Assembly: GCA_045863855.1 (NCBI GenBank)
Contig: BTVV01000157.1
Location: 1 to 13,136 of the forward strand
DNA length: 13,136 bases
Direction of reading: 5' to 3'
DNA from: Planctomycetota bacterium
Lineage (GTDB): Bacteria; Planctomycetota; SZUA-567; H5-PLA8
This document shows positions 2 through 12,834 of the stretch, piece after piece (position 1 is the stretch's first letter; every line of letters begins with the position of its first letter). The translations under genes and the position numbers were made by a program. Under the pieces are notes generated by a model, which was not told the origin of the DNA, searched no databases, and worked only from the letters and a program-made list of their open reading frames with translations.

Positions 2-1831
2 GGGCAGTTCTTCTGCCTCCTTCTTGGAACGCAGGTAGGTACAAACCTCGCCGGGTGCGCAGTCGAGCCGGATAAAATCGGGAATTTCCTTACCGTGGAG
101 GCTTTCTGACCTGAAGTATTTCTGGCAGCCCATACATAGGGCGCTCATGATATTGTGGCCTTTCGCTCCAAGCGCCTGGACCTCATTCATCCGGCCGCAA
201 TTCTTCGGATTGCGCCCTGATAAATATACTGCCCCCGCCCCAATCTGCTTCACGAGGTCCTCGCCCTTCTTGATTGTCCCCTTCGCTTCCTGTTCACGGG
301 AAGAATCCACGAGCACGCAGACCCGCATCGGCCTGGAAGACTTGCCGCGCTTCACTTGGGGCCAGCCGACGGCATATTTCGCACGCAACACCTTAACCAC
401 GGCCGTCGTCTTCCCAACTCCGAAAGGATCCTGCCGAACCAGCAGTTCGGCGCGACCGCGACGAGCAGGATGAATGGCCCGGATCAGGCTCGCGGTTAAG
501 TGGCCGGCGGCGAAGTAGACGCTTCGAGCGTCCGTCGAAGTCTGAAGCAGCCAGGTAGGAGGCGGGCATTCCTGTATTCTGGGCCCTTCAACTACTTCAG
601 CTTCAGGTGCCGTCTCTTTCGCCGGTGGCGGGCAGATCCGCGGCGAACGGCCTAGGGCCAGAAGATCGTCTATGCCTTTGGGACTCCCGGATTCATCGGT
701 GTCCCATTCGGCCACGGATACCCGGTACCCGTTCGCTTGAAGCGCGCCAATCAACGCCAGTTCAGCGCGCCGTACTTGCTTATTGGCGTTCTTGTCCTGG
801 TCCATCGCCACTACGATCTCGCCAGCCTTGTCCGGCAGGACCCGTTGAAGCGCCGCGAGCGCATGCCGCCACACTGTAACGCCTGGAATGCCGACCACGA
901 TTTCACTGAGAAACTCTGCGGCAACATCGGCCTTAAGTCCGCCTTCCGTGATCCAGATCCGTTTGTCATTGGCGTTAAGTCGACCTGGACTAGCGATGTT
1001 GGCCATCAGCGATGCCTTGGTCCCGTCCATGCGTGGAGGCCCGTCCTCCGATCCACCCGAGGGGTTAGAACTGAACGAGAAGTATTTCGACCGCTTACTT
1101 GAGCCCGAAGACATCCCCTCCTCCATATCGGGCCGTATCTGCATGAATGGAATGCGGCCTTGCTCGTCGCGAAATGGAATGAGCAATCCGGACAGGCCGG
1201 CCATGTTCCATCGCGAGATCCCGCCCCGGAACTGACGCATATAAAAGCCGGGAATACCCAACAAGTTGTCCAAACCGACCGCGTCCATTACTTCTTCTGC
1301 GATTCCTAATCGATCAAACGACTTCAAGGATGCGTAGCCCTTGCGCGTGATGGCTGCCTCGCTGAGCCCACGCGCCAAGAGAGCCTTGCGGTGCTGGTCG
1401 GATAAACCAAGTGCTTGCAGCAACGCTCGGTAAACCCGATCTCGAACCTCAACCGGCGCCAAGTTGTCTTCTGCTTGGGGACTGACTACAGGTTCAGCGC
1501 TGGGAAGCTCGAAGGCCGATTTCCCAGGCGTCCAATCCAAGCCCCTGTAAGGCCGCCGGGGACCTTCAACCATGGATTCAAAAGTAAGGGGATGCCAATA
1601 GCCGACGTTACCGTCGCTAAACTCGACTTCAATTTCAGAGTCCCATTTTGAACAGATGGCCTCATCAGGTCGAACTAGACAATACTTCTCTCGACCACAG
1701 ACTGGACACATGCGCGTGGACTTTGCTTCCCACCAGATCCGGCTCCACTTTTTTACTTTGCGAGGGTAGGAAGGGGGCGTTTGAAGGCCCGGCCACTTGC
1801 GCTCCGGCTCCCCGGGGGGTACGTTCGACAT
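2..1831 (-). CDS. Primase-helicase fusion, 3'-truncated by the window edge (at least 610 aa): Zn finger + DUF3854-like TOPRIM primase + SF2 helicase N-terminal part
   Basis: Manual translation of the minus strand is open from ATG 1831 (alternative in-frame ATG 1897) to the window edge. Motifs: CPVCGREKYC-x8-C (about 1708-1652); RDRVYRALLQALGLSDQHRKALLARGLS; LLGIPGFY; GLLIPFRDEQGRI; TOPRIM IWITEGGLKAD (about 955-925), GIPGV, VVAMDQD (about 810-790) and W-x7-PKGIDDLL (about 705-660); Walker A QDPFGVGKTT (about 432-403); then LSGRNPKNC, CMGC and CAPGEVCTY. Confidence 0.88.
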   Translation of the reverse strand, partial: MSNVPPGEPERKWPGLQTPPSYPRKVKKWSRIWWEAKSTRMCPVCGREKYCLVRPDEAICSKWDSEIEVEFSDGNVGYWHPLTFESMVEGPRRPYRGLDWTPGKSAFELPSAEPVVSPQAEDNLAPVEVRDRVYRALLQALGLSDQHRKALLARGLSEAAITRKGYASLKSFDRLGIAEEVMDAVGLDNLLGIPGFYMRQFRGGISRWNMAGLSGLLIPFRDEQGRIPFMQIRPDMEEGMSSGSSKRSKYFSFSSNPSGGSEDGPPRMDGTKASLMANIASPGRLNANDKRIWITEGGLKADVAAEFLSEIVVGIPGVTVWRHALAALQRVLPDKAGEIVVAMDQDKNANKQVRRAELALIGALQANGYRVSVAEWDTDESGSPKGIDDLLALGRSPRICPPPAKETAPEAEVVEGPRIQECPPPTWLLQTSTDARSVYFAAGHLTASLIRAIHPARRGRAELLVRQDPFGVGKTTAVVKVLRAKYAVGWPQVKRGKSSRPMRVCVLVDSSREQEAKGTIKKGEDLVKQIGAGAVYLSGRNPKNCGRMNEVQALGAKGHNIMSALCMGCQKYFRSESLHGKEIPDFIRLDCAPGEVCTYLRSKKEAEELP

Positions 1832-1992
1832 AGGAGTGCATTCCGGTCCCTGGGCGTTGCGCCCGACACGCGCACGCCCTTTTTTATCATTCCGCATCTT
1901 CCCGCGAATGCAATTCAGCCTTCGTCAGTGACCAACGGGACGCGCCCTTGGTCTCACTTGAATCCGGCTTCTCTTGCACCGATACCGGTGCC

Positions 1993-2634
1993 ATGCCCAG
2001 AAAGCCAAAGCCGAGCCGTGCGCTCACCCAGGATGAAGTCACCCACTGCCTCAAATGGCTGGCCCGCCCCCGCTCCCTGCACGGGTGCTGGTCCGTCGGC
2101 CAGACTCTCGCCGCCGCCCTAGGCCCTCGGCGCGCCGAGTACGGAAAGGGAACCCTGAACGAATACGCCAAGGAACTCGGTGTCAGCGCAGACGTGCTGC
2201 GGCACATGCTGAGGCTCGGCCAGAAATGGAAGAAGGGTGAGGTGAAGGCCGCACAACGAGCAGGACTGGGGTTCCGCGCGGCGCAAATCCTCGTCGTGCT
2301 CGATACCCGGGGCAAGTCCGCGCGGCGCCGCCGTCTCGTGGAAAAGTTCCGCAAGAAGAAGCTCAGTCGCGCCGGCCTGTACGAAAAGATTCGCTCCGCC
2401 AAGGCCAAGCCCAAACGCTTGAAGGCCGGCCCCCGTCTGCGCGCCCTGCTTGACCTGCGCCGCACGCTCGCCACCCGGCTTGACCGCGTGCGTGCTCGCC
2501 TCCAGTCCGACCGGCGGCTCTGGCCGGCCGCGCAACGGCCACGCGTCCAGCGTTTGAGCGCGCAGCTTCGACGGATCCAGGAGGCGCTGGAGCAGCGTTA
2601 CCAGGACGCCGCGAAGGAGTTGCGGGCGCGCTGA
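1993..2634 (+). CDS. Basic DNA-binding protein with a DUF1016 (YhcG) N-terminal-like domain and a helical C-terminus, about 213 aa
   Basis: ORF 1948..2634, with ATG 1993 (MPRKPKPS) preferred. WSVGQTL...RRAEYGKGTLNEYAKELGVSADVLRHMLRL resembles the DUF1016-N pattern (W.IG...AEYG...L...L...S...LR.M). It is very Arg/Lys-rich with GC3-rich codons, and no PD-(D/E)xK C-terminal domain is visible. Confidence 0.65.
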   Translation: MPRKPKPSRALTQDEVTHCLKWLARPRSLHGCWSVGQTLAAALGPRRAEYGKGTLNEYAKELGVSADVLRHMLRLGQKWKKGEVKAAQRAGLGFRAAQILVVLDTRGKSARRRRLVEKFRKKKLSRAGLYEKIRSAKAKPKRLKAGPRLRALLDLRRTLATRLDRVRARLQSDRRLWPAAQRPRVQRLSAQLRRIQEALEQRYQDAAKELRAR

Positions 2635-2638
2635 GCGC

Positions 2639-2857
2639 CTACGGCGGCTCCGCGTGCTCGGCCTGGGCGCCGCAACGGATCCGCTCGGCAATGATCGCGA
2701 CCAGTTCAGCTTCGTCCTTGCTCAGCTGGTCCAAGACCAACAGCTTCAAAATCGTGCCGACCGGCAGCCCCGCGAAATGGCGCGCGTGCAGCGCCTCAAG
2801 CCGCCGTTGGGGACCCGGCGGCAGGCGCGTGTGAAAAGTCCTACCGGGTTCGCCCAT
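2639..2857 (-). CDS. Small protein, probable ribbon-helix-helix (CopG/Arc-like) regulator, 72 aa
   Basis: AGGAG ribosome-binding site 6 nt before ATG 2857. The pattern is an alternating strand TFHTRL, a helix PQRRLEALHARHF, a Gly turn and a helix PVGTILKLLVLDQL. It converges on the 1993..2634 gene with a 4-nt gap. Confidence 0.6.
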   Translation of the reverse strand: MGEPGRTFHTRLPPGPQRRLEALHARHFAGLPVGTILKLLVLDQLSKDEAELVAIIAERIRCGAQAEHAEPP

Positions 2858-3046
2858 GGGAAGCTCCTGGGAAGGGCGCGGGCTGCCCGTACATGGGCGC
2901 GAGCGCGACGGTTGGGGTGGAGGGATGCGACTGGGACGCGTTACGAGACGGTGCTGAGGCGGGGGACGGGACGGATCAGAAGGGAAAGCGTGGCCCTGAC
3001 CAGGAAATATTAACGCATTTTCATCTGTAAATTAGATGCAGCGCCG

Positions 3047-6000
3047 CTAACCCGCCGCCCAAGCTCCCGACAATAACTCCGCCTGCATGAGCACTGTCTG
3101 CACGGCCTCATCCTGCAAGTCCGGCGGGTAGCCAAACTTGTTCAAAATGCGCTTCACGAGCACGCGAATCTTCGCGCGGGCGCCCTCGCGATATTGCCAG
3201 TCTATGGTCACGCTCTCGCGCACGCGCGTGATCAGTTCGGTCGCGATTACTTTAAGCTGCTGGTCGCCCATCACCTGCACCGCAGAAGCGTTCGTCGCCA
3301 GGGCGTCGTAGAAGGCTACTTCGTCCTCATTCAGCCCCAGGCTCTCCCCGCGCTTGCCGGCCGCCTTGACCTCCTGCGCCAGCTTGATCAGTTCCTCGAT
3401 CACCTCCTGCGTGGCAATGGCGCGGTTGTGGTAGGCGTTCAAGGTCTTCTTCAGCTTCTCGCTGAAGCGCTCCGACTGAACCAGATTCCGTTTCGAGCGC
3501 GTTTTAATCTCGTCCTTGAGCAGCTTCGCCAGCAACTCGGCAGCGACGTTCTTGTGCTTCAGGCCGCGCACTTCGGCCAGAAAGCGCTCGTCGAGGATCC
3601 CGATGTCCGGCTGCTTCAACCCGGCGGCGGCGAATACGTCAATCACTTGGCCTTCGGTCACGATGGCCTTCGAAACCAACTGGCGTACGGCCGCATCAAG
3701 CTGCTCCGGCGTCTTCTGGGCGCCCGTCGTCTGCTTGTTCAGCGCCGACTGGATCGCCTGGAAGAAGCTCACGTCGTCGCGGATCGCCGTCGCTTCATCG
3801 CTGGCCGCGCACAAGGCGAACGCCTTGGACAGCTCGCTCACCACCTGCACGAAGCGCTTCTTGCCGTCCTCCTGAGCCAGCACGTGTTCCTGTCCGGCCG
3901 GGATTAGCGCCAGGCGCTCGGCCGGCTTGCCCGTGGTCCACTTCGTCCTGTCGAAGCCATGGAGCATGTCGCCGGCCACGGCGTGCTTCTCCAGCATGAC
4001 CGCGATGGCCTGTTTCGTATCGTAGGTGGGGTCGCCCTTCCCGCCGCTCTCGGTGTACGTCGCCAGCGCCCGCTTGAGCTGGTCGGCCAGGCCCAGGTAA
4101 TCCACCACCAGCCCGCCGGGCTTGTCGCGGAAGACGCGGTTCACTCGGGCGATCGCCTGCATGAGCCCATGCCCGCGCATGGGCTTATCGGCGTACATCG
4201 TATGCAGACACGGCGCGTCGAACCCCGTCAGCCACATGTCGCGCACGATCACGATCCGGAAGGGGTCTTTGCTGTCCTTGAAGCGGTTGGCCAGCTTACG
4301 GCGCTTGTCTTTGTTGCGGATATGCGGCTGCCACTCGGGGCCGTCCTCGGCGCTGCCGGTCATCACGACCTTGACCACACAGCTCTTGCCCTGCTCGGCT
4401 TCCGCGTCGTCGTCTTTCACGCCGGCCCAATCGGGGCGTAGCTTGATAAGGGCCGCGTACAAGTCCACGCAGATCCTCCGGCTCATGCAGACGATCATGG
4501 CCTTGCCGTCCAGCGCCTCCAGCCGCTTCTCGAAGTGCGCGACTAGATCGGCGGCGATCAGCTTGATCCGCTTGGGGTCGCCCACCAGCGCTTCCAGCGC
4601 CGCCCACTTCGTCTTGAGCTGCTCCTTCTTCGTCTGCTCTTCCCCTTCGGTGATCTCGTCGAACGCGTCGTCCAGTCTGGGCAGTTCGCTGGCATTCAAG
4701 CTCAGCTTGGCGATGCGGCTCTCGTAGTAGATCGGAACCGTCGCCTTGTCGGCCACGGCACGCTGGATGTCGTAGATGCTGATGTAATCCCCGAAGACTG
4801 CCCGTGTGTTGGCGTCGGTCTTCTCGATGGGCGTGCCGGTAAAGCCGATAAACGAGGCGTTGGGCAACGCGTCGCGCATGTTCCGCGCCAGGCCGTCAAT
4901 CAGATCGTACTGGCTACGGTGCGCTTCGTCGGCGATCACCACGATATTCCGGCGCGTGCTCAACTCCGGCATCTTCTCTTGCCTGTCGGGCAGGAACTTC
5001 TGGATCGTCGTGAAGACCACGCCGCCGCTGGCCACTTTCAGCAGTTCGCGCAACTGCTCCCGGTTGGCCGCTTGCACGGGCGTCTGGCCCAGCAGTTCGT
5101 GGCAGCGCTGGAATTGCCCGAAGAGTTGGTCGTCGAGGTCGTTACGGTCGGTCAGGACCACCAGCGTAGGGTTCTGCATCTTCGGATGCCGGATGGCCCG
5201 GGCGGCGTAGAAGAGCATGGAGTAGCTCTTGCCGCTCCCCTGCGTGTGCCAGACCACGCCCGCGCGGCGGTCGCCGGGCTGGCCCCCGTGCATTCGTCCC
5301 GACCAGTACCCGCCGGGGTCTTCTTGCGCGCTCACGACCGGCTTGGCCTTGCCGCTGGCGCGGAGGGTCTCTTCCACGGCCGCGTTCACGGCGTGGAACT
5401 GGTGGTAGCCGGCGATGATCTTGTGGATGGCACCCGTGTCCGGGTCGTCCTCGAAGGCGATGAAGTGTTGGAGCAGTTCCAGAAAGCGCCGCGGCTCGAA
5501 GACACCGCGGACCAGGACTTCCAGTTCCAGGGCGCTCTTGGGCGCGTCGGCTTCGCCTTGGATCGTACGCCAGACCTTGAACCATTCTTGGGATGCCGTC
5601 AGCGATCCGATCCGCGCCTGCAAGCCGTCCGAGACCACCAGCACCGCGTTGTACTGCAAAAGCGACGGGATCTCGGCCTTGTAGGTCTGGATCTGCTCGT
5701 AAGCGCTCCAGATCGTGGCGTTCTCGTCGGCGGCGTTCTTCAATTCGATCAGCCCCAGCGGCAGGCCGTTGACGAAGACCACGATGTCCGCCCGCCGATT
5801 GTGGTTTCCTTCGATCACGGTGAACTGGTTGACAGCCAGCCAGTCGTTGGCGTCGGGGTCGCTGAAGTCCACCAGCCACGCTTTGTCGTGCTTGACGGAC
5901 CCGTCGGGGCGGGCGTACTCCACGTCCACGCCGTCGCGCAGCAGCTTATGGAAGGCGCGGTTGGTCTGGACGAGCGAGGGGGTCGCGATGCGCGTGACTT

Positions 6001-6214
6001 TGCGCAGCGCGTCCTCGCGGGCTTCGGCCGGGATGTTGGGGTTGAGCTTCGCCAGCGCTTCGGCCAGCCGCGCCTTCAGGACCACCTCGCCCAGGGAATC
6101 GCGCTCGGCGTGCGTTTCGCCGGGCGCCATGTTCGGGCCGTAGCGCAGGCCGTACGCCAGGCTCGAAAACCAGGAGATGGCGGCTTCTTCGACGTGGGAT
6201 TCGTTAAGGCTCAT
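3047..6214 (-). CDS. hsdR: Type I restriction endonuclease subunit R (1055 aa from ATG 6214)
   Basis: Nuclease motif [19 protein letters not shown] and QIQTY; Walker [41 protein letters not shown]3387-like C-terminus (FGYPPDLQ). The start [12 protein letters not shown] is typical of the family, and the 39-codon upstream extension in the ORF track runs through the repeat region. Confidence 0.97.
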
Positions 6215-6384
6215 CGCCGACCCTCTGGCGGTGCAGCCGAATCCTGCCAAAGTGGCAGGATAAACGGCAGGATACCGTGACTTCGTCCTAAGAAAGAAAG
6301 ATGAACCCCGGCATGTCTGGAATCCTGCCAAAATGGCAGGATATTTGGCAGGATACTCCCTGGGTTCTCCACGAGAGTGTTCAT
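6211..6384 (-). CDS. Putative 57-aa mini-ORF linking the deaminase gene and hsdR ([57 protein letters not shown])
   Basis: ATG 6384-6382 overlaps the TGA of the deaminase gene (ATGA). Its own TGA (6213-6211) overlaps the hsdR ATG (ATGA). It contains ILPxILPxWQDS twice. Confidence 0.45.
6239..6356. repeat. Two 37-bp imperfect direct repeats (6239-6275, 6320-6356), each with three GGCAGGAT boxes (one inverted, two direct)
   Basis: gaatcctgccaaagtggcaggataaacggcaggatac vs gaatcctgccaaaatggcaggatatttggcaggatac: 33/37 identical, 81-bp period, 44-bp spacer. Each unit holds the palindrome ATCCTGCCA-N3-TGGCAGGAT plus a further box 12 bp on. Confidence 0.95.
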
Positions 6385-7877
6385 ACCGTGCGAACCTTGT
6401 ACTTGCTGGCCCTTGCCGAACCTACCTTCACCAGTAGGTTCAACTCTTGAAACCGCCCAAGGTGATGCATCGCGGTACGATAGGGTATATTCATTGCCTT
6501 GGCATAGTCCGCCGATGTGGTTTCTTCGCGCGTCACCAGCCACTCCCAGCCCTCGCGCTCCGACCGGCTCATCTTGCTCAGCACTGCCGCCCCCAGCGCC
6601 TGAACGGCCGCTTGCGCATGCCGGTACAGCGTCAAGTTCAGGTACACGCCATCGAATGCGTATTTCGGAACCGGAAGCCCATGCTGGGTGGCCGCCGCGG
6701 CGAGCGTTCGCATGCCCAAGCCGCGCCCTTCCACCAGCTTGGTGCCGCCAAACGCAAACTGTAGCTTGGGATTCCGGTTGTACATGGGCGCGCTGAAATC
6801 CTGCAACTGTTCCAGCGTAACCGGCGATAGCGGAGCGCCAGGACTGCGTATCCGCACGGCATCCGCCGTCACCACCACGTGGCACGTGGCCCCGGTCAGG
6901 TCGTAGTCGCGGTGGACCAGCGCGTTGATCACCGCTTCCCGTATCAACTCGAACGGAAGCACGGACCGCTCTTGCCGCGCCATCCGGCTGCGGTCAATAA
7001 CCTGCGGCATCTTGGGGCGCAGCCATTTCTCCACTTCACCGGGGATCAGCACGGCCGGCCCGTCGAAGGTGCGAATCTCGTGCGCGCCTTCGGGAAATTC
7101 GAGCGTGCCGTTCAAACCCGCGTGATGGAGCATCTCGCGGGGCGCCTTGCCGAAGAGCAGCAACCCAAACCCCGTGGGGCGCAGCTTGGACCGATGGCGG
7201 CGCAGCAAACCCTGCCGTTCCAGCCGCCTTTGAAATCCTACCGAGTTCGTCTTATCCGGGATCCCAGCGCTTTGGCGGTAGCGCTCCAACGCATTTTTCG
7301 CGAGATCGGTCCATGCCGCGTCGGACAATGCTTCGTCCCACCGGGATATCGGCGCGGGCTGGAAAGTCCCTTTCTTGGCCTCAGCCGCGCGCACTTGCGC
7401 CTGGACGAGGAACGCTTTGTTGGCTTTGCGAATCCGTTCCTGTAAGTCCCGGTCGAAGAAATGAACCCGGACGCCGTGCTCCTCCAGGTACCGGATACCT
7501 CGCCCGTCCACGTTGGGGTCAGGATCTTCGATGCCCACCCACACATCGGCGATCCGGGCATTCACGATCCGCTCGGCGCAAGCCAGCTTGGGGTGCTTCC
7601 GCGCGCCCGGCGCGCAGGGTTCCAGGGTCGCGAAGATCACGGACCCGTCCAGCCTTGTGTCGCGGTGTTTACGCTCCAGCAGGGTGAACTCGGCGTGGTC
7701 CCCTTCGCGCAATTCTCCGCGCGAGGCCGTGTCCACCGAGCCGTCCGGCTTCACCAGCACCGCGCCCACCAGCGGGCTTGCTTTCCCGTCCGAGCGCCCT
7801 TCCGCAACGGAGTGTTCCATCACCTCGATGGCCTTCTCCATCATCGCGCGCGGATTTAGCTTGGGCTTAGCGGTCAC
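6381..7877 (-). CDS. RibD-like Zn-dependent deaminase fused to a HATPase_c_4 (RecG C-terminal-like) domain and a C-terminal winged HTH, 498 aa
   Basis: N-terminal [16 protein letters not shown]-x11-C and [14 protein letters not shown] match the cytidine deaminase/RibD fold. The middle carries [31 protein letters not shown] and VEGRGLGM. The C-terminus [41 protein letters not shown] fits a wHTH. GTG start preceded by GGAG. Confidence 0.88.
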
Positions 7878-8007
7878 GTGAACTCCGAACGGTGGTGCCC
7901 ATTAAATGCACACAGGGTTTGGGCTGCGGCTCGTGCCCGACCGTATAGCCCAACTTCCCGAACCATTCGAGGGAGGCGTCTTCGACGATGGATTCGTTGA
8001 GGGGCAT
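7867..8007 (-). pseudogene. Remnant of an hsdR 5' end (46-codon [49 protein letters not shown])
   Basis: 12 of the first 21 aa match the HsdR N-terminus at 6214 ([21 protein letters not shown]), and 27 of the first 33 nt are identical. It starts 3 nt after the OLD-gene stop, and similarity ends near codon 27. Confidence 0.85.
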
Positions 8008-8010
8008 CGG

Positions 8011-10008
8011 CTACTTCCACGTGGCTGCGACCGCATTGACCGCATCAATGAGTTTCCGAAACTTTGCAGCCGTGTCGACATCGACCTCCGCCAGCTTCTT
8101 CTTGCCGAGGTCTGACATGATGCGCTTCGCGACCCGGCCTTTGTTGTATTCGCCGATCCCGGCCTTTGAAAACGCGTCCTCAACCCGGTCAACGATTGTT
8201 TTCTTTCCGGCTGTCTTCGCATCGACCGTCAGCGGCTTACCGCCGAGTTCCTTGGCGTAGGCTTCCGATACCTTTCCCACGTAGTAGGATTCGCCGAATA
8301 GGTCTTCCAGAGCGCATGGGTTTGCTCCGACGGCATCGCCAACCATCACAACAAGCTTGTCCTGCAGAATCCATTGATGCACCAACTGCTCGAAGGCTTG
8401 CTTCCCGGCGGCGTCCGAATCCAAAAGAACGGCTACGTTTAGTTCCTGTCCTTTCAGAATTGTGCCAACGTAAGCAACTTTGCTCGCCCCACCCGCCGGC
8501 GTGACCACAAGGCGTGGGTCTATGCCTGCCTGACCGCCCTCCTCAAACATGGTCGAGAAAGCTGTCAGCAGCCAGAAATCATCCACGCCTTCGACGACGA
8601 GATTGAATTGGCCGACAAACAGCGACTGGCTCCAGGACAGACCGAGCGCAGCCTGTAGCGTGAAGCGCGCATCCTTATCAGCGGTAGCCCAGTTCTTGTG
8701 AACCTTCGATCCTTCCTTCGGGATTTCCTCCGCGACGTAGATGTTGTCGAGTCGCTTGAAGTCAATCATGAAAGGCAGGTGCGTGGTGTAGAACAGTTGA
8801 TTCCCCTTCGCGTATGCTTTCATCCGTTCCAGCAAGTCCCGTTGCGCGGCGGCGTGCAGATGCAGCCCGGGCTCATCCAGAAGGATGATGGCGTTTTTGA
8901 ACTGCCCGTCCGTCTCATACATGAAGCGCATGTCGAACGAGAAAAACCATTGGAATCCTTTCGATCTGTCCTCCAGCGGGACAAGCCCCTTGTCGTTCAG
9001 GTCTTTCACAAATGTGATGAAATGCTGGCCGTCCGCTTGGAACACCACCTGGTAACGCCTCTGTGACCACCTCTCCGCAATTAGTGACGTGAGCGTGTTG
9101 CTCGCATCATTCATGTCGAGAATGCGTTGCTCCCGGTCCTCTTCCCCACCCTTCTTGACCTCTTCCTCAAGATCGAGACCCGACATCTCCATGATGACAA
9201 TAATGGTCTCTTCCTCCGGGCTCAGTCCCTTTTCCTTCTTGTGCTTCAGCACATCATCAAGCTGGGCGGAGCCAACAAAAGTCCTGTGGTCGTCCATGTA
9301 GATGAAGGTCGGCAGGCAGTCATGAACGATGTCGACCACGCGAAGGAGCGGCGTCGCCTCGATTTCCTTAATGAGACGGTCAATTTTTTCGTTGAGCGCA
9401 GGAATCGTATTTTGATCCTGCTGATGTGGCGGATTGTTCGGGTGCCGAAATGAGGCGAACTGGTTCTTAAACTCTGGGAGCTTCGCTAGAGCGTGAGCAC
9501 TGCCGCCGTGCTCCTTGACTTCGGCAATAAGCTCATCCCGCTTCGGTGCATACTGTTGCTGAAAATGGTCACTAAAACCCGCAGGCAATTCAGCAAGTCC
9601 GTTACGAAGCAAATCAACGACCCAATCAACATTGTGGTCTGTGCTCGGGTTCTTGGGAACGAACGAATGGGTGTAATTTCCCGCATACGTTCTCGCCATT
9701 TCGACGCCAGTGATGCCCTTCGCGGACTCGTGGATTGCTTCGATCCTGGCAATTTCCTCAGCGTTGAAGGTGAATTTCGCCTCCACAACGACTTTGTCTG
9801 GCGACTTCTCCTTTCTCCTGCCGCTAGGCCATTCACGGTCGATGTTATAACCGACATCATGGAAAGGGTTGAACTTCCAAAGTGCCTTGAGGAACGATGT
9901 CTTACCCGACTCGTTTTTACCGACGATGACGCCGATATCGTCGATGTCGACCCAGCCTGAGTCGAGAATGCTCCGATAGCTCTGAACGCGGCATGATGTG
10001 AGTTTCAT
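8011..10008 (-). CDS. OLD-family ATP-dependent nuclease (ABC-type ATPase + TOPRIM), 665 aa
   Basis: N-terminal VQSYRSI; Walker A VGKNESGKTS; degenerate ABC signature RSKGFQWFFSF; Walker B/D-loop LLDEPGLHLH; H-switch TTHLPF; TOPRIM LVVEGVDD and VLLDSDAAG; LEDLF. AGGAG lies 7 nt before the ATG, which overlaps the hsdS stop (ATGA). Confidence 0.9.
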   Translation of the reverse strand: MKLTSCRVQSYRSILDSGWVDIDDIGVIVGKNESGKTSFLKALWKFNPFHDVGYNIDREWPSGRRKEKSPDKVVVEAKFTFNAEEIARIEAIHESAKGITGVEMARTYAGNYTHSFVPKNPSTDHNVDWVVDLLRNGLAELPAGFSDHFQQQYAPKRDELIAEVKEHGGSAHALAKLPEFKNQFASFRHPNNPPHQQDQNTIPALNEKIDRLIKEIEATPLLRVVDIVHDCLPTFIYMDDHRTFVGSAQLDDVLKHKKEKGLSPEEETIIVIMEMSGLDLEEEVKKGGEEDREQRILDMNDASNTLTSLIAERWSQRRYQVVFQADGQHFITFVKDLNDKGLVPLEDRSKGFQWFFSFDMRFMYETDGQFKNAIILLDEPGLHLHAAAQRDLLERMKAYAKGNQLFYTTHLPFMIDFKRLDNIYVAEEIPKEGSKVHKNWATADKDARFTLQAALGLSWSQSLFVGQFNLVVEGVDDFWLLTAFSTMFEEGGQAGIDPRLVVTPAGGASKVAYVGTILKGQELNVAVLLDSDAAGKQAFEQLVHQWILQDKLVVMVGDAVGANPCALEDLFGESYYVGKVSEAYAKELGGKPLTVDAKTAGKKTIVDRVEDAFSKAGIGEYNKGRVAKRIMSDLGKKKLAEVDVDTAAKFRKLIDAVNAVAATWK

Positions 10009-11264
10009 TTGGTTTCTCCTGTAATTGATAATTCTCCTGAAAGCAGCTTCGGCAGCAGCGTGTCGCGCAGGGTGGCGAGGGTGCGGGATTGGTTTTCGAG
10101 GATACGGATTTGCTCATCGAGTGGTCCCGCTTGGCGCTCGTAGGCCGCGATGATTTCCGGTGGCGAAATGACGAAGGGAAGTTTCTCGAAGCCGTCTTTG
10201 TTGATGGACCCGAACACAGTGCCTTCGGCCTCGAAGCGGGCGAAGTCAGGATAGAGGTTCGCCATCGAATGATAGGTGAAGGAAGTCGCGCCGGACTTGT
10301 GGCGCACGGCGGCGACGCCTCGCCCGATGCAGCATTCCTCGTTCGCCATGTTGATGTCGCCCACGGGCGCACGGACGCTGACGAGCGTGTCGCCCGGCTT
10401 CGCGTAGCGAGTCGGGGCGGTGCAGTAGATGCGGCGGGTTGGGAAACGGAAACCGAAGTCAGTTCGTCCTTGGTAGAACGGTAGGCCGTTGCCTTCTTCG
10501 TTATAGGTATCGCCGGGCGGCGATTGCCCCATCGTAAGGGTGAAGCCTTCGGCCACTGATCCTGCTTTCCAACCCGTCGGAATGTGTCCCAGCGGTGTGT
10601 CTTCTAAATGCTCGGGGAATAGGGCTGCGGTGGCATCGTCGAGGCCGGTGGGTTTGCGGCCGTCGAGTTTGGCGCGGACGGGGTCGAAATCCACGAACCA
10701 GCTCTGGAACAGCGCCCGCGCCATCGCCTCCAGCGTCGCGTTCATCCGCCGGTTCAACTCGATCTTGTCGTCCAGGCTACCAAGCACCGCCGCGATGGCC
10801 TTTTGCTCGGCGAGGGGTGGGAGCGTGATTTCAAATGCTTCAAAGCCCGACTTATTCAGAATGGGAGTTCTCGACCCACCCGCTCCAAGTCGAAAGATCG
10901 CATTTCTTTCTGAGGTCAGGGAATAGTAAACAAAAAGGTCATCCGCCAGGTCGGGGTCTGGAACCAGCGTGTTTATTTGTTGGTTCGTTGCAGCAGGCCT
11001 GTCGATCAAGACAGCCTTTCCCATCTGCCAGCCAATACATGAAACGGCAACGCCGCGCTGCACGATGACTCTCTTGAGAACCTCGCTTCCTTGAACAGAA
11101 AGTGACCTTGCCGTCTCGCGAACTTTGCGGCGACCGTCCATATCGGTAGGCGTGACAAACGGAACCGCATCGCCGAAATACTCCGGCAACGTTCCTGGAG
11201 GTGTTCGGCCCGTAACGACAGAACCAAGCTGACCTAACTGGAATTTCTTCCATTTACCCGCCAT
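10005..11264 (-). CDS. hsdS: Type I RM specificity subunit S, 419 aa
   Basis: Two TRDs separated by the conserved [49 protein letters not shown] and IPTGW segments, with C-terminal [17 protein letters not shown]. The start overlaps the hsdM stop by 11 nt. Confidence 0.97.
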
Positions 11265-12834
11265 AGCCCAACCCCTTCAGGTTGGCCTTGATCGCCTTCT
11301 CCAGCTTCGCCGATTCCGCGAACTGCCCATGCAACTCCCCCACCAGCCGCGCCATCTTCCGCTCGAACGGCTCGCCGTCGTCTTCCACTTCCTCCGCGCC
11401 CACGTACCGACCCGGCGTAAGCACGAACCTGTGCGCGGCGATTTCCGCCGTCGTCGCCGACTTACAGAAGCCCGCCACGTCCGCGTACTTCCCCGCGCCT
11501 TTATCGCCCCGCCACGCATGGTACGTGGACGTGATCTTGGCCAGGTCGGCATCGGTCAGTTCGCGGTGGACGCGGTCGATCAGCGTCCCCAGCTTGCGGG
11601 CGTCTATAAAGAGCGTCTGCTTGCGCCGGTCGCGGCGTTTGCCGTCGTGCTTGTTTTTCGCCAGGAACCACAGGCAGACGGGGATCTGCGTGCTGTAAAA
11701 GAGCTGCCCCGGCAGCGCGACCATGCAGTCCACCAGATCGGCCTCGATCAGCGCCTGGCGGATCTCGCCTTCGCCCGACTGGTTCGACGACATGCTCCCG
11801 TTGGCCAGCACGAAGCCCGCCATCCCCTGCGGCGCCAGATGGTGGATGAAGTGCTGCACCCAAGCGAAGTTGGCGTTGCCCTTGGGCGGGACGCCGTACT
11901 TCCAGCGCACGTCGTCGTCCTTGCGGAACCAGTCCGAATCGTTGAAGGGCGGGTTGGCCAGCACGTAATCGGCGCGCAGGTCGGGGTGCAGGTCGCGGCG
12001 GAAGGAATCGGCATGCTCCGGCCCGAAGTCGGCCTCGATGCCGCGGATGGCGAGGTTCATGATGGCCAGCCGGCGCGTGGTGGCGTTGCTTTCCTGCCCG
12101 TAGATGCTGATGTCGCCCACTTTCCCGCCGTGGGCCTCGACGAACTTCTCCGACTGCACGAACATCCCCGCCGAGCCGCAGCACGGGTCAAAGATGCGTC
12201 CCTTGTACGGCGCGAGCATCTCGACGAGGCAGCGCACGACGCAGGACGGAGTGTAGAACTGCCCGCCGTTCTTGCCTTCGGCGCTGGCGAACATGGTCAG
12301 GAAGTATTCGTAGACGCGCCCCAGGATGTCCTTGGCGCGGTTCTCGGCATCGCCCAGGCCGATGGTGCCGACCAGGTCAATCAGTTCGCCCAAGCGGTGC
12401 TTATCCAGCGCGGGCCGCGCGTAATCCTTGGGCAGGACGCCCTTCAAGCGTGTGTTGTCGCGCTCGATGGCGACCATGGCGTCGTCAAGGAGCTTGCCGA
12501 TGGTGGGCTGCTTGGCGTTGGCCTGTAAGTGCGGCCAGCGCGCTTCTTTAGGCACCCAGAAGATGTTCTCGGCGCGGTACTCGTCGGCGTCTTCGGGGTT
12601 CGAGCCCTTGTACTCGCCCTTGCCTGCGAGCAGCTTGGCGCGGTGCTCTTCGAAGCTGTCGGAGATGTACTTCAGGAAGATCAGGCCCAGTACGACGTGC
12701 TTGTACTCCGCCGCGTCCATGTTGTTGCGCAGCTTATCGGCCGCCAGCCACAGCTTGGCCTCGAAGCCCAGGGCAGCCGCGGAGCCGTTGGTGCCTTTGG
12801 GCGGGGCGTCCGCCGCCGCCTTCCGTCGTCCCAT
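11254..12834 (-). CDS. hsdM: Type I RM N6-adenine methyltransferase subunit M, 526 aa
   Basis: [33 protein letters not shown]-domain, GQFYTP, motif [12 protein letters not shown], motif [16 protein letters not shown]. Confidence 0.98.

Follow-up and report, generated by a model that had tools for sequence, protein, structure and literature searches.

The stretch of DNA considered here (the window, 13,136 nucleotides) is one whole contig of the 6.9-Mb draft genome of a Planctomycetota bacterium. It carries a type I restriction-modification (RM) operon with an embedded gene, 6381-7877 on the minus strand, whose product joins a zinc deaminase of the RibD clade to the body of a Schlafen-type protein. 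The gene has a GTG start and no internal stop in the open reading frame (ORF) list and translation, and its product of 498 amino acids (aa) reads, from the N-terminus, as a deaminase domain, a small winged-helix-like domain, a GHKL/histidine-kinase-like module (Pfam HATPase_c_4) and a winged helix-turn-helix (wHTH) domain. It is proposed, tentatively, that the protein is a sensor-gated deaminase and a self-contained accessory defence module housed within the type I RM operon. The body would bind nucleic acid and a nucleotide, sense an infection cue and then switch on the deaminase head, which would deaminate a small substrate bearing a ribose phosphate, either a nucleotide or a metabolite resembling one, and in this way spoil or deplete a pool needed by the phage. 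For defence role and substrate class taken jointly, the probability is put a little below one half.

The initial annotation of this gene, made from the sequence alone, had listed deaminase motifs (HAE and PC-x11-C) together with ATP-binding motifs, and every one of these is in the translation. In an alignment of 45 family members having 28-73% identity to the window protein (alignment A1), the zinc-binding and catalytic residues are kept almost throughout (H61 in 44/45, E63 in 45/45, C88 in 44/45 and C100 in 44/45), and the deaminase is predicted to be catalytically intact. Pfam places dCMP_cyt_deam_1 at residues 14-115 (37.6 bits versus a cut-off of 25) and Inv-AAD at residues 78-149 (32.1 bits versus 26.5). 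A profile search of the PDB matched B. subtilis RibG (2b3z) at E 2.9e-24 versus 2e-15 for the best TadA (89 versus 60 bits), with the 11-residue spacing from C88 to C100 aligned to RibG EPCS..GKTPPC. VIA-align of model residues 6-164 gave RibG (4g3m_B) a Z of 20.5, with a root-mean-square deviation (rmsd) of 2.5 over 146 aligned residues and 31% identity; other fold matches were to the fungal Rib2 (Z 16.0), TadA (Z 15.3) and dCMP deaminase (Z 14.9). In sequence profile and modelled fold alike, RibG and RibD are the closest relatives of the deaminase.

The window protein is not, however, the housekeeping RibD. With RibD/RibG (2b3z/4g3m; TIGR00326) it shares HAE, TLEPC, the long inter-cysteine insert and a DP(N/D)P motif with the ribose-binding Asp, whereas the insert is 8 residues long in RibG and 11 in the window protein (9 in some family members), RibG Asn103 is replaced by D or N in the family, and RibD has a reductase domain and a rib context that are both absent here. 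Against NCBIfam TIGR00326 the protein scored 64.2 bits, short of the 156.35 set as cut-off, and the match was confined to model positions 12-136 of 343, the deaminase third; the RibD reductase domain was not found, residues after 165 being homologous to the HATPase_c_4 chassis. No rib genes were found in the window, the contents of which are, by Pfam, only hsd, OLD-like and DUF3854 genes, so that the first description of a RibD-like domain with neither a reductase nor rib genes nearby holds. A canonical ribD scoring above the cut-off (337 bits) lies elsewhere in the genome, on contig C151. A stand-alone riboflavin-pathway or nucleotide-salvage enzyme would have in its favour that RibD is the nearest family, that one related locus (L078) adjoins pyrimidine-biosynthesis genes, on the other strand, and that another (L082) adjoins GMP synthase. 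Such a housekeeping role already fails the comparisons made, namely the TIGR00326 cut-off and missing reductase, the full ribD elsewhere in the genome, the distribution (395 of 401 genomes of the phylum have no match at E<=1e-60) and the fusion to a 320-aa sensor/DNA-binding body, and it is given very little probability indeed.

The rest of the protein was examined in an AlphaFold2 model made from 45 diverse homologues, with a mean predicted local distance difference test (pLDDT) of 92.1 and a predicted template modelling score (pTM) of 0.65; the linker at residues 172-174 is short and of low model confidence. The small helix/hairpin domain that follows it, the first part of the shared chassis, matched no Pfam family at E<=10 beyond one chance-level match, and falls both within the hhalign match to the Schlafen-type family and within the match to 3lmm that are given below. 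For the GHKL-like module, Pfam HATPase_c_4 covers residues 329-417 at 48.5 bits versus a cut-off of 26, and positions 75-248 of a chassis-only model (residues 249-422) gave middling matches to HprS (9epn_B; Z 8.7, rmsd 3.6, 119 aligned) and HK853 (5uht_A; Z 8.7, 125 aligned). In GHKL ATPases the N-box consensus has a conserved Glu and Asn, and the G1 box has the form DxGxG, its Asp reading adenine. The N-box Glu and Asn (E314 and N318) are present and invariant in the family, as are H322, N369 and G388 (each of the five in 45/45 members of A1), and R323 (43/45) and Y325 (44/45) are nearly so; further GHKL-like motifs in the translation are SPG at 345-347 (S345, P346 and G347 each in 43/45), RNP at 368-370 and GRGLG at 384-388.

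The C-terminal wHTH of the initial annotation was likewise recovered, by PDB profile matches to XylR/MarR-type regulators (E 1e-4 to 1e-2) and by fold matches to PerR, Fur, MarR and ArsR domains (Z 9-10) and to the C-terminal wHTH of Fic proteins (Z 8.8-9.0); the C-terminus of PADLOC SoFic was matched at E 0.0083. With two winged-helix-type parts, the body is suggested to bind nucleic acid. As a unit, the body matched DIP2311 of Corynebacterium diphtheriae (3lmm) at Z 23.1 over 234 aligned residues (residues 175-453), and at Z 22.3 when folded alone, which outscores every other solved structure by far.

Homology of this body with that of Schlafen-type proteins is also seen in sequence profiles. 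Family A1 aligned by hhalign with the AlbA_2-HATPase_c_4 family at a probability of 99.8% (E 2.4e-28, 315 columns), pairing window residues 178-495 with 154-480 of the Schlafen-type reference, a 595-aa AlbA_2 + HATPase_c_4 protein from the hsd operon of locus L003, and a BLASTP alignment to a 484-aa AlbA_2-type protein of the same phylum was collinear (183-495 versus 158-483). Both Pfam domains occur in all of the 120 homologues listed for the 595-aa protein (120/120), and no Pfam match to SLFN_AlbA_2 was found in the window protein. The hhalign probability and the 3lmm match thus support the initial statement that this chassis normally carries an AlbA_2/Schlafen domain. Since the whole body is shared, with the hhalign match starting only at residue 178, and residues 4-165 are a deaminase, the deaminase sits in the position of the Schlafen RNase; on these alignments the head swap from Schlafen to deaminase that had been suggested at the outset is real. 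The Schlafen-HATPase_c_4-wHTH proteins (3lmm; the pSlfn-HisKinase-HTH of Taboada et al. 2025; the Schlafen + minimal histidine kinase + wHTH of a 2026 BREX survey) resemble the window protein in a homologous body from about residue 178 to the C-terminus, in total length (484-595 aa) and in habitat (RM/BREX-type operons), but carry an N-terminal AlbA_2 RNase where the window protein has a RibD-clade zinc deaminase. The design of a Schlafen domain with a histidine-kinase-like domain, without or with an HTH, is described as the commonest among prokaryotic Schlafens, at 34.0% plus 19.2% of 5,930 proteins (10.1101/2025.07.24.666596), and as tightly linked to RM and BREX (PMC13462974; PMC12839542), and prokaryotic Schlafens are described as cleaving tRNA (10.1101/2025.07.24.666596; PMC13462974).

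Clues to the substrate of the deaminase come from RibG, in which Asp101 and Asn103 hold the 2'- and 3'-hydroxyls of ribose and Lys79 forms a salt bridge to the phosphate (PMC8256712). The family keeps D118, the counterpart of Asp101, in 44/45 members, and has D in 22 and N in 14 of the 45 at position 120 (D or N in 36/45). Also conserved are four basic residues that surround the active site (R53 44/45, R57 41/45, R93 42/45, K97 38/45). Because the Asp101 counterpart and the four basic residues are kept, the predicted substrate is a small molecule bearing a ribose phosphate. A more specific proposal is decidedly unlikely. In it, the head, triggered by infection, would make a RibD-like attack on the 2-amino group of a ribonucleotide derived from guanine, while the body would read DNA or RNA from failed restriction; candidate substrates are GTP/GMP, nucleotides of 7-deaza or ring-opened guanine, and nucleotide second messengers. 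If true, this guanine 2-amino chemistry would be one not yet seen in nucleotide-targeting immunity. Modified phage bases, named as a possible target in the initial annotation, are pure speculation.

The main rival explanation retains the same module and has the head edit nucleic acid, most likely tRNA, so that translation is poisoned, or else mutate phage DNA or RNA. The body is common to the Schlafen tRNases and could bring in their substrate; after RibD/RibG, TadA is the nearest relative of the head, the AID/APOBEC-like Inv-AAD family scores above its Pfam cut-off, and the body has two domains of nucleic-acid-binding type. Yet RibD/RibG, with a mononucleotide-like substrate, is clearly closest in both profile score and fold, and the nearly invariant D118 corresponds to the Asp that in RibG binds free ribose hydroxyls, whereas the 3'-OH of an internal residue in a polynucleotide is not free. 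Nucleic-acid editing is accordingly regarded as unlikely, although it is a serious competitor of a small-molecule substrate.

The family is uncharacterised, horizontally scattered, and large but patchy. A word-indexed search listed at least 120 near-full-length relatives (66-100% identity), with both domains in all of those listed, and an exhaustive search of 50%-identity representatives returned 240 clusters at E<=1e-30 and 1,926 at E<=1e-10, the weaker matches among the latter including plain RibD and plain chassis proteins. The same architecture in the 120 listed homologues, together with motif residues kept in 43-45 of 45 members, shows that the fusion is not due to chance. The public names of these proteins are 'ATP-binding protein' (NCBI) and 'ATP-dependent DNA helicase RecG' (JGI). 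Six of 401 genomes in a sample of the phylum have a match at E<=1e-60, four of them full length, and none of seven other genomes from the same family-rank group has a match (0/7); in the window's own genome the deaminase fusion is the single HATPase_c_4 gene. A metagenome scan found 584 related stretches. Among matching records, none of 115 from plasmids and none of 20 from phages covers at least 80% of the protein, and none of 67 IMG/VR loci spans both deaminase and chassis.

Some family members (P0150, P0171, P0175 and P0257) have an extra N-terminal domain of 135-185 aa ahead of the deaminase. P0171 and P0257 share their first ~185 residues, which open with CPIC...CPYC and look like a zinc ribbon. 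None of the four extensions has a Pfam match at E<=0.001, and the idea that they are fused DSPc domains was rejected, as there was neither similarity nor a Pfam family.

Gene neighbourhoods were compared at 9 genome and 80 metagenome loci, for which ORFs were called with a simple longest-first caller; phmmer searches with the window's own Hsd subunits served to label hsd genes, and Pfam was applied to the neighbours. No target was called at one locus (L031), so that 88 loci were counted, and because many contigs are short the hsd counts are lower bounds. A type I hsd gene lies within four genes at 35/88 loci (4/9 genome and 31/79 metagenome), or at 30/74 when targets at least 95% identical are merged. 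Downstream on the same strand, hsdR is found at 24 of the 59 loci having at least 1 kb downstream, and it is the first or second gene (+1 or +2) at 21/88. Four further loci adjoin Eco57I/MmeI-like, type ISP or Mrr-helicase restriction genes. In one genome of the same phylum (locus L099, G111:C85, 6129-16334), the gene has a ResIII helicase of 1018 aa on one side and an N6_N4 methylase of 927 aa on the other, with a UvrD-type helicase coming next, and in another it stands between SIR2_2 and hsdR. Also embedded in the operon gaps are GmrSD, RhuM, Abi_C, SIR2(-HerA), OLD, Thoeris ThsA/ThsB, AAA_13 and HEPN genes. In the window itself, HsdM, HsdS and HsdR flank the gene (Pfam, PADLOC), as first stated, and with only three HSDR_N places in the 6.9 Mb of the genome the chance of such adjacency is well below 1%, by estimate and not by a computed control. 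Relatives show strong enrichment in RM and defence neighbourhoods; the association is with restriction-type operons of several classes, frequent with type I RM and not obligate, for which reason a self-contained module that lands in RM operons fits better than a fixed type I subunit.

This arrangement could also be read as a guard of the restriction enzyme, in which the protein is silenced by the Hsd complex and freed when a phage anti-restriction protein disables restriction. PrrC works as such a guard with EcoprrI. The usual site of the gene, directly upstream of hsdR on the same strand, would suit a guard, as would its presence inside other RM types and the overlapping or closely spaced genes of the window operon. 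Against it, hsd genes are missing from the surroundings of most loci, among them some on contigs that reach 10 kb to either side (L004, L008, L056, L058, L076), and RM partners of such unrelated classes speak against a single, specific protein contact; a guard is considered improbable. A DNA-binding regulator is a different possibility, with the head tuning the RM operon or other genes in response to a metabolite and the protein having no effector function. The wHTH does resemble MarR/ArsR/Fur-type regulators, 'putative transcriptional regulator' is the annotation given to satellite-phage relatives of the body, and some loci are housekeeping-like. A ligand sensor, however, would have no need of the catalytic Glu and three zinc ligands that are kept in 44-45/45 members, and the patchy distribution and defence-rich surroundings fit an accessory immune gene better, so that the odds are heavily against a regulator.

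Several results weigh against the proposed defence module. The G1 box position holds SPG instead of the textbook DxGxG and, together with the middling fold match to kinase domains (Z 8.7), this means that ATP binding is not established. RibD-likeness leaves the substrate unfixed, with TadA, which edits tRNA, as next-best match. At 53/88 loci, many on short contigs, there is no hsd gene within four genes, and a few loci are housekeeping-like, with ordinary metabolic or transport neighbours along long loci (L056, L066, L077, L078, L082, L088). Where protection was seen among tested Schlafen proteins (2/7), the two were a DUF262 fusion and an Ig-like fusion, neither of which has the shared body (10.1101/2025.07.24.666596). 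A scan of 6100-8200 gave no promoter-like sites, and two terminator-like sites, both on the opposite strand and not above shuffles. The defence role for the family is drawn from sequence and context.

The concept of deaminase-based immunity is already known; what appears new, from sequence comparison, is a known scaffold carrying a RibD-clade head. Deaminase anti-phage systems include the dCTP deaminase AvcD/DCD, RADAR RdrB and the CRISPR-associated Cad1, of which AvcD/DCD uses the zinc cytidine-deaminase fold and RdrB and Cad1 use another fold. All three are alike in concept to the proposed module, being infection-triggered deaminases that alter nucleotides, but their regulatory part is a kinase-like P-loop, the RdrA ATPase or CARF, whereas the window protein has a RibD-like head and a GHKL-like + wHTH regulator; their PADLOC models gave no match to the window protein at E<=0.01. 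Named anti-phage systems were searched in PADLOC-DB v2.0.0, where no model matched at full length. Partial matches were to Aga_SIR2-PNTD1-PNTD2 (138-353), a second Aga model (312-353) and pAgo (191-427, E 1e-4). No description of a deaminase-HATPase_c_4-wHTH fusion was found in the literature, a search whose scope did not extend to the supplements of 10.1101/2025.07.24.666596, PMC13462974 and PMC12839542, where such proteins may be listed. As to genomic position, type I RM operons also harbour the PrrC/RloC anticodon nucleases. Vibrio cholerae TgvAB, a pair of defence genes within such an operon, is reported to have been shown to work (PMC11411939). Both are like the window gene in standing between hsd genes and in a proposed second layer against phages escaping restriction, and their proteins are unrelated to the window protein.

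If the proposed reading is correct, a deaminase clade so far known only from vitamin biosynthesis would join the bacterial immune effectors, and the Schlafen/histidine-kinase-like/wHTH scaffold would be a general switch that drives different enzymatic heads, its trigger gaining two read-outs, RNA cutting and deamination. The family would then offer a compact, regulated deaminase, and RM operons of several classes would be landing sites for second-layer defence genes. Table 1 collects the features of the gene and its operon.

Table 1. Positions of the deaminase fusion gene, its domains and motifs, and the neighbouring operon genes in the window.
Feature	Coordinates	Strand	Basis
Whole gene: deaminase/winged-helix-like/HATPase_c_4 (GHKL-like)/wHTH protein	6381..7877	-	ORF, Pfam, AlphaFold2, full-length homologues
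RibD-clade zinc deaminase domain, residues 4-165	7383..7868	-	PDB profile search, fold comparison
H61-A62-E63, zinc ligand and catalytic glutamate	7689..7697	-	translation, conservation
P87-C88...C100, two cysteine zinc ligands, RibD-like long insert with conserved R93 and K97	7578..7619	-	
D118-P119-D120-P121, counterpart of RibG DPNP ribose-binding motif	7515..7526	-	alignment to RibG Asp101/Asn103
Small helix/hairpin (winged-helix-like) domain, residues 178-248, first part of shared chassis	7134..7346	-	model secondary structure
GHKL/histidine-kinase-like module, residues 249-422	6612..7133	-	Pfam, chassis-only model
N-box-like motif [13 protein letters not shown], residues 313-325 (R313-Y325)	6903..6941	-	translation
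C-terminal wHTH, residues 430-498	6384..6590	-	PDB profile matches, fold matches
hsdM, N6-adenine methyltransferase subunit	11254..12834	-	Pfam HsdM_N and N6_Mtase; PADLOC MTase_I 734.7 bits
hsdS, specificity subunit	10005..11264	-	Pfam Methylase_S; PADLOC Specificity_I
AAA_15/OLD-like ATPase, 665 aa	8011..10008	-	Pfam AAA_15 83.3 bits and AAA_21
hsdR, type I restriction subunit	3047..6331	-	Pfam HSDR_N, SWI2_SNF2, T1R_D3-like, T1RH-like_C

The five genes of the operon stand head to tail on the minus strand in the order hsdM-hsdS-OLD-like ATPase-deaminase gene-hsdR, and they overlap or are closely spaced, the start of the OLD-like ATPase overlapping the hsdS stop by 4 nucleotides. In PADLOC the OLD-like ATPase matches the models for AriA, Old and GajA, and its C-terminal part gives a weak match to Toprim_2 (E 0.0062); by these matches it is probably an OLD-family nuclease and a further defence layer in the hsd operon. 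PADLOC REase_I matches hsdR at 1119 bits from residue 40 onward; the listed hsdR ORF opens at a TTG that lies 39 codons ahead of the point at which every family model begins, and the true start is likely the ATG at 6214 (M40 of the listed ORF). With that start, the gap from the deaminase gene to hsdR is 166 nucleotides. A tRNA scan of the window found none. Among 170 upstream ORFs there is no relative of the 106-aa ORF at 7902-8222, and this ORF, like the middle region and the tail, gave only chance-level matches to Pfam at E<=10.

Some further arrangements were observed at the related loci. One hsd operon of L003, a Bipolaricaulota metagenome-assembled genome, holds a Schlafen-headed (4236-6023) and a deaminase-headed version (10001-11497) of the protein, and an OLD nuclease gene and a DSPc-like gene are present there too. 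The cluster at L099 is type III-like or an unnamed restriction cluster. A conserved small upstream partner gene was sought, and none is general. A DSPc-like gene of 160-174 aa lies directly upstream in six loci only (L003:9338-9862, L004:9319-9831, L006:2296-2808, L033:5073-5555, L034:641-1126 and L043:556-1038), with or without hsd genes nearby; it has no counterpart in the window and may act as a partner within a single sub-branch of the family. In nine loci (L011, L013, L014, L019, L034, L047, L062, L068 and L072) an ORF of ~50-145 aa stands just upstream of the target, and phmmer ties those of L019, L062, L068 and L072 to part of HsdR; these short ORFs may be HsdR-derived fragments or a small domain gene.

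At the left end of the window, a DUF3854-containing protein of at least 632 aa (2-1897, minus strand), with cysteine-rich N-terminal stretches, runs off the contig. The adjoining ~2000-3000 has 67-69% G+C and no confident gene; the sole match in this stretch is a weak one to DUF1016_N (E 0.0045), from an ORF at 1948-2634 on the plus strand. The DUF3854 gene and the high-G+C stretch may mark a mobile element beside the RM island.

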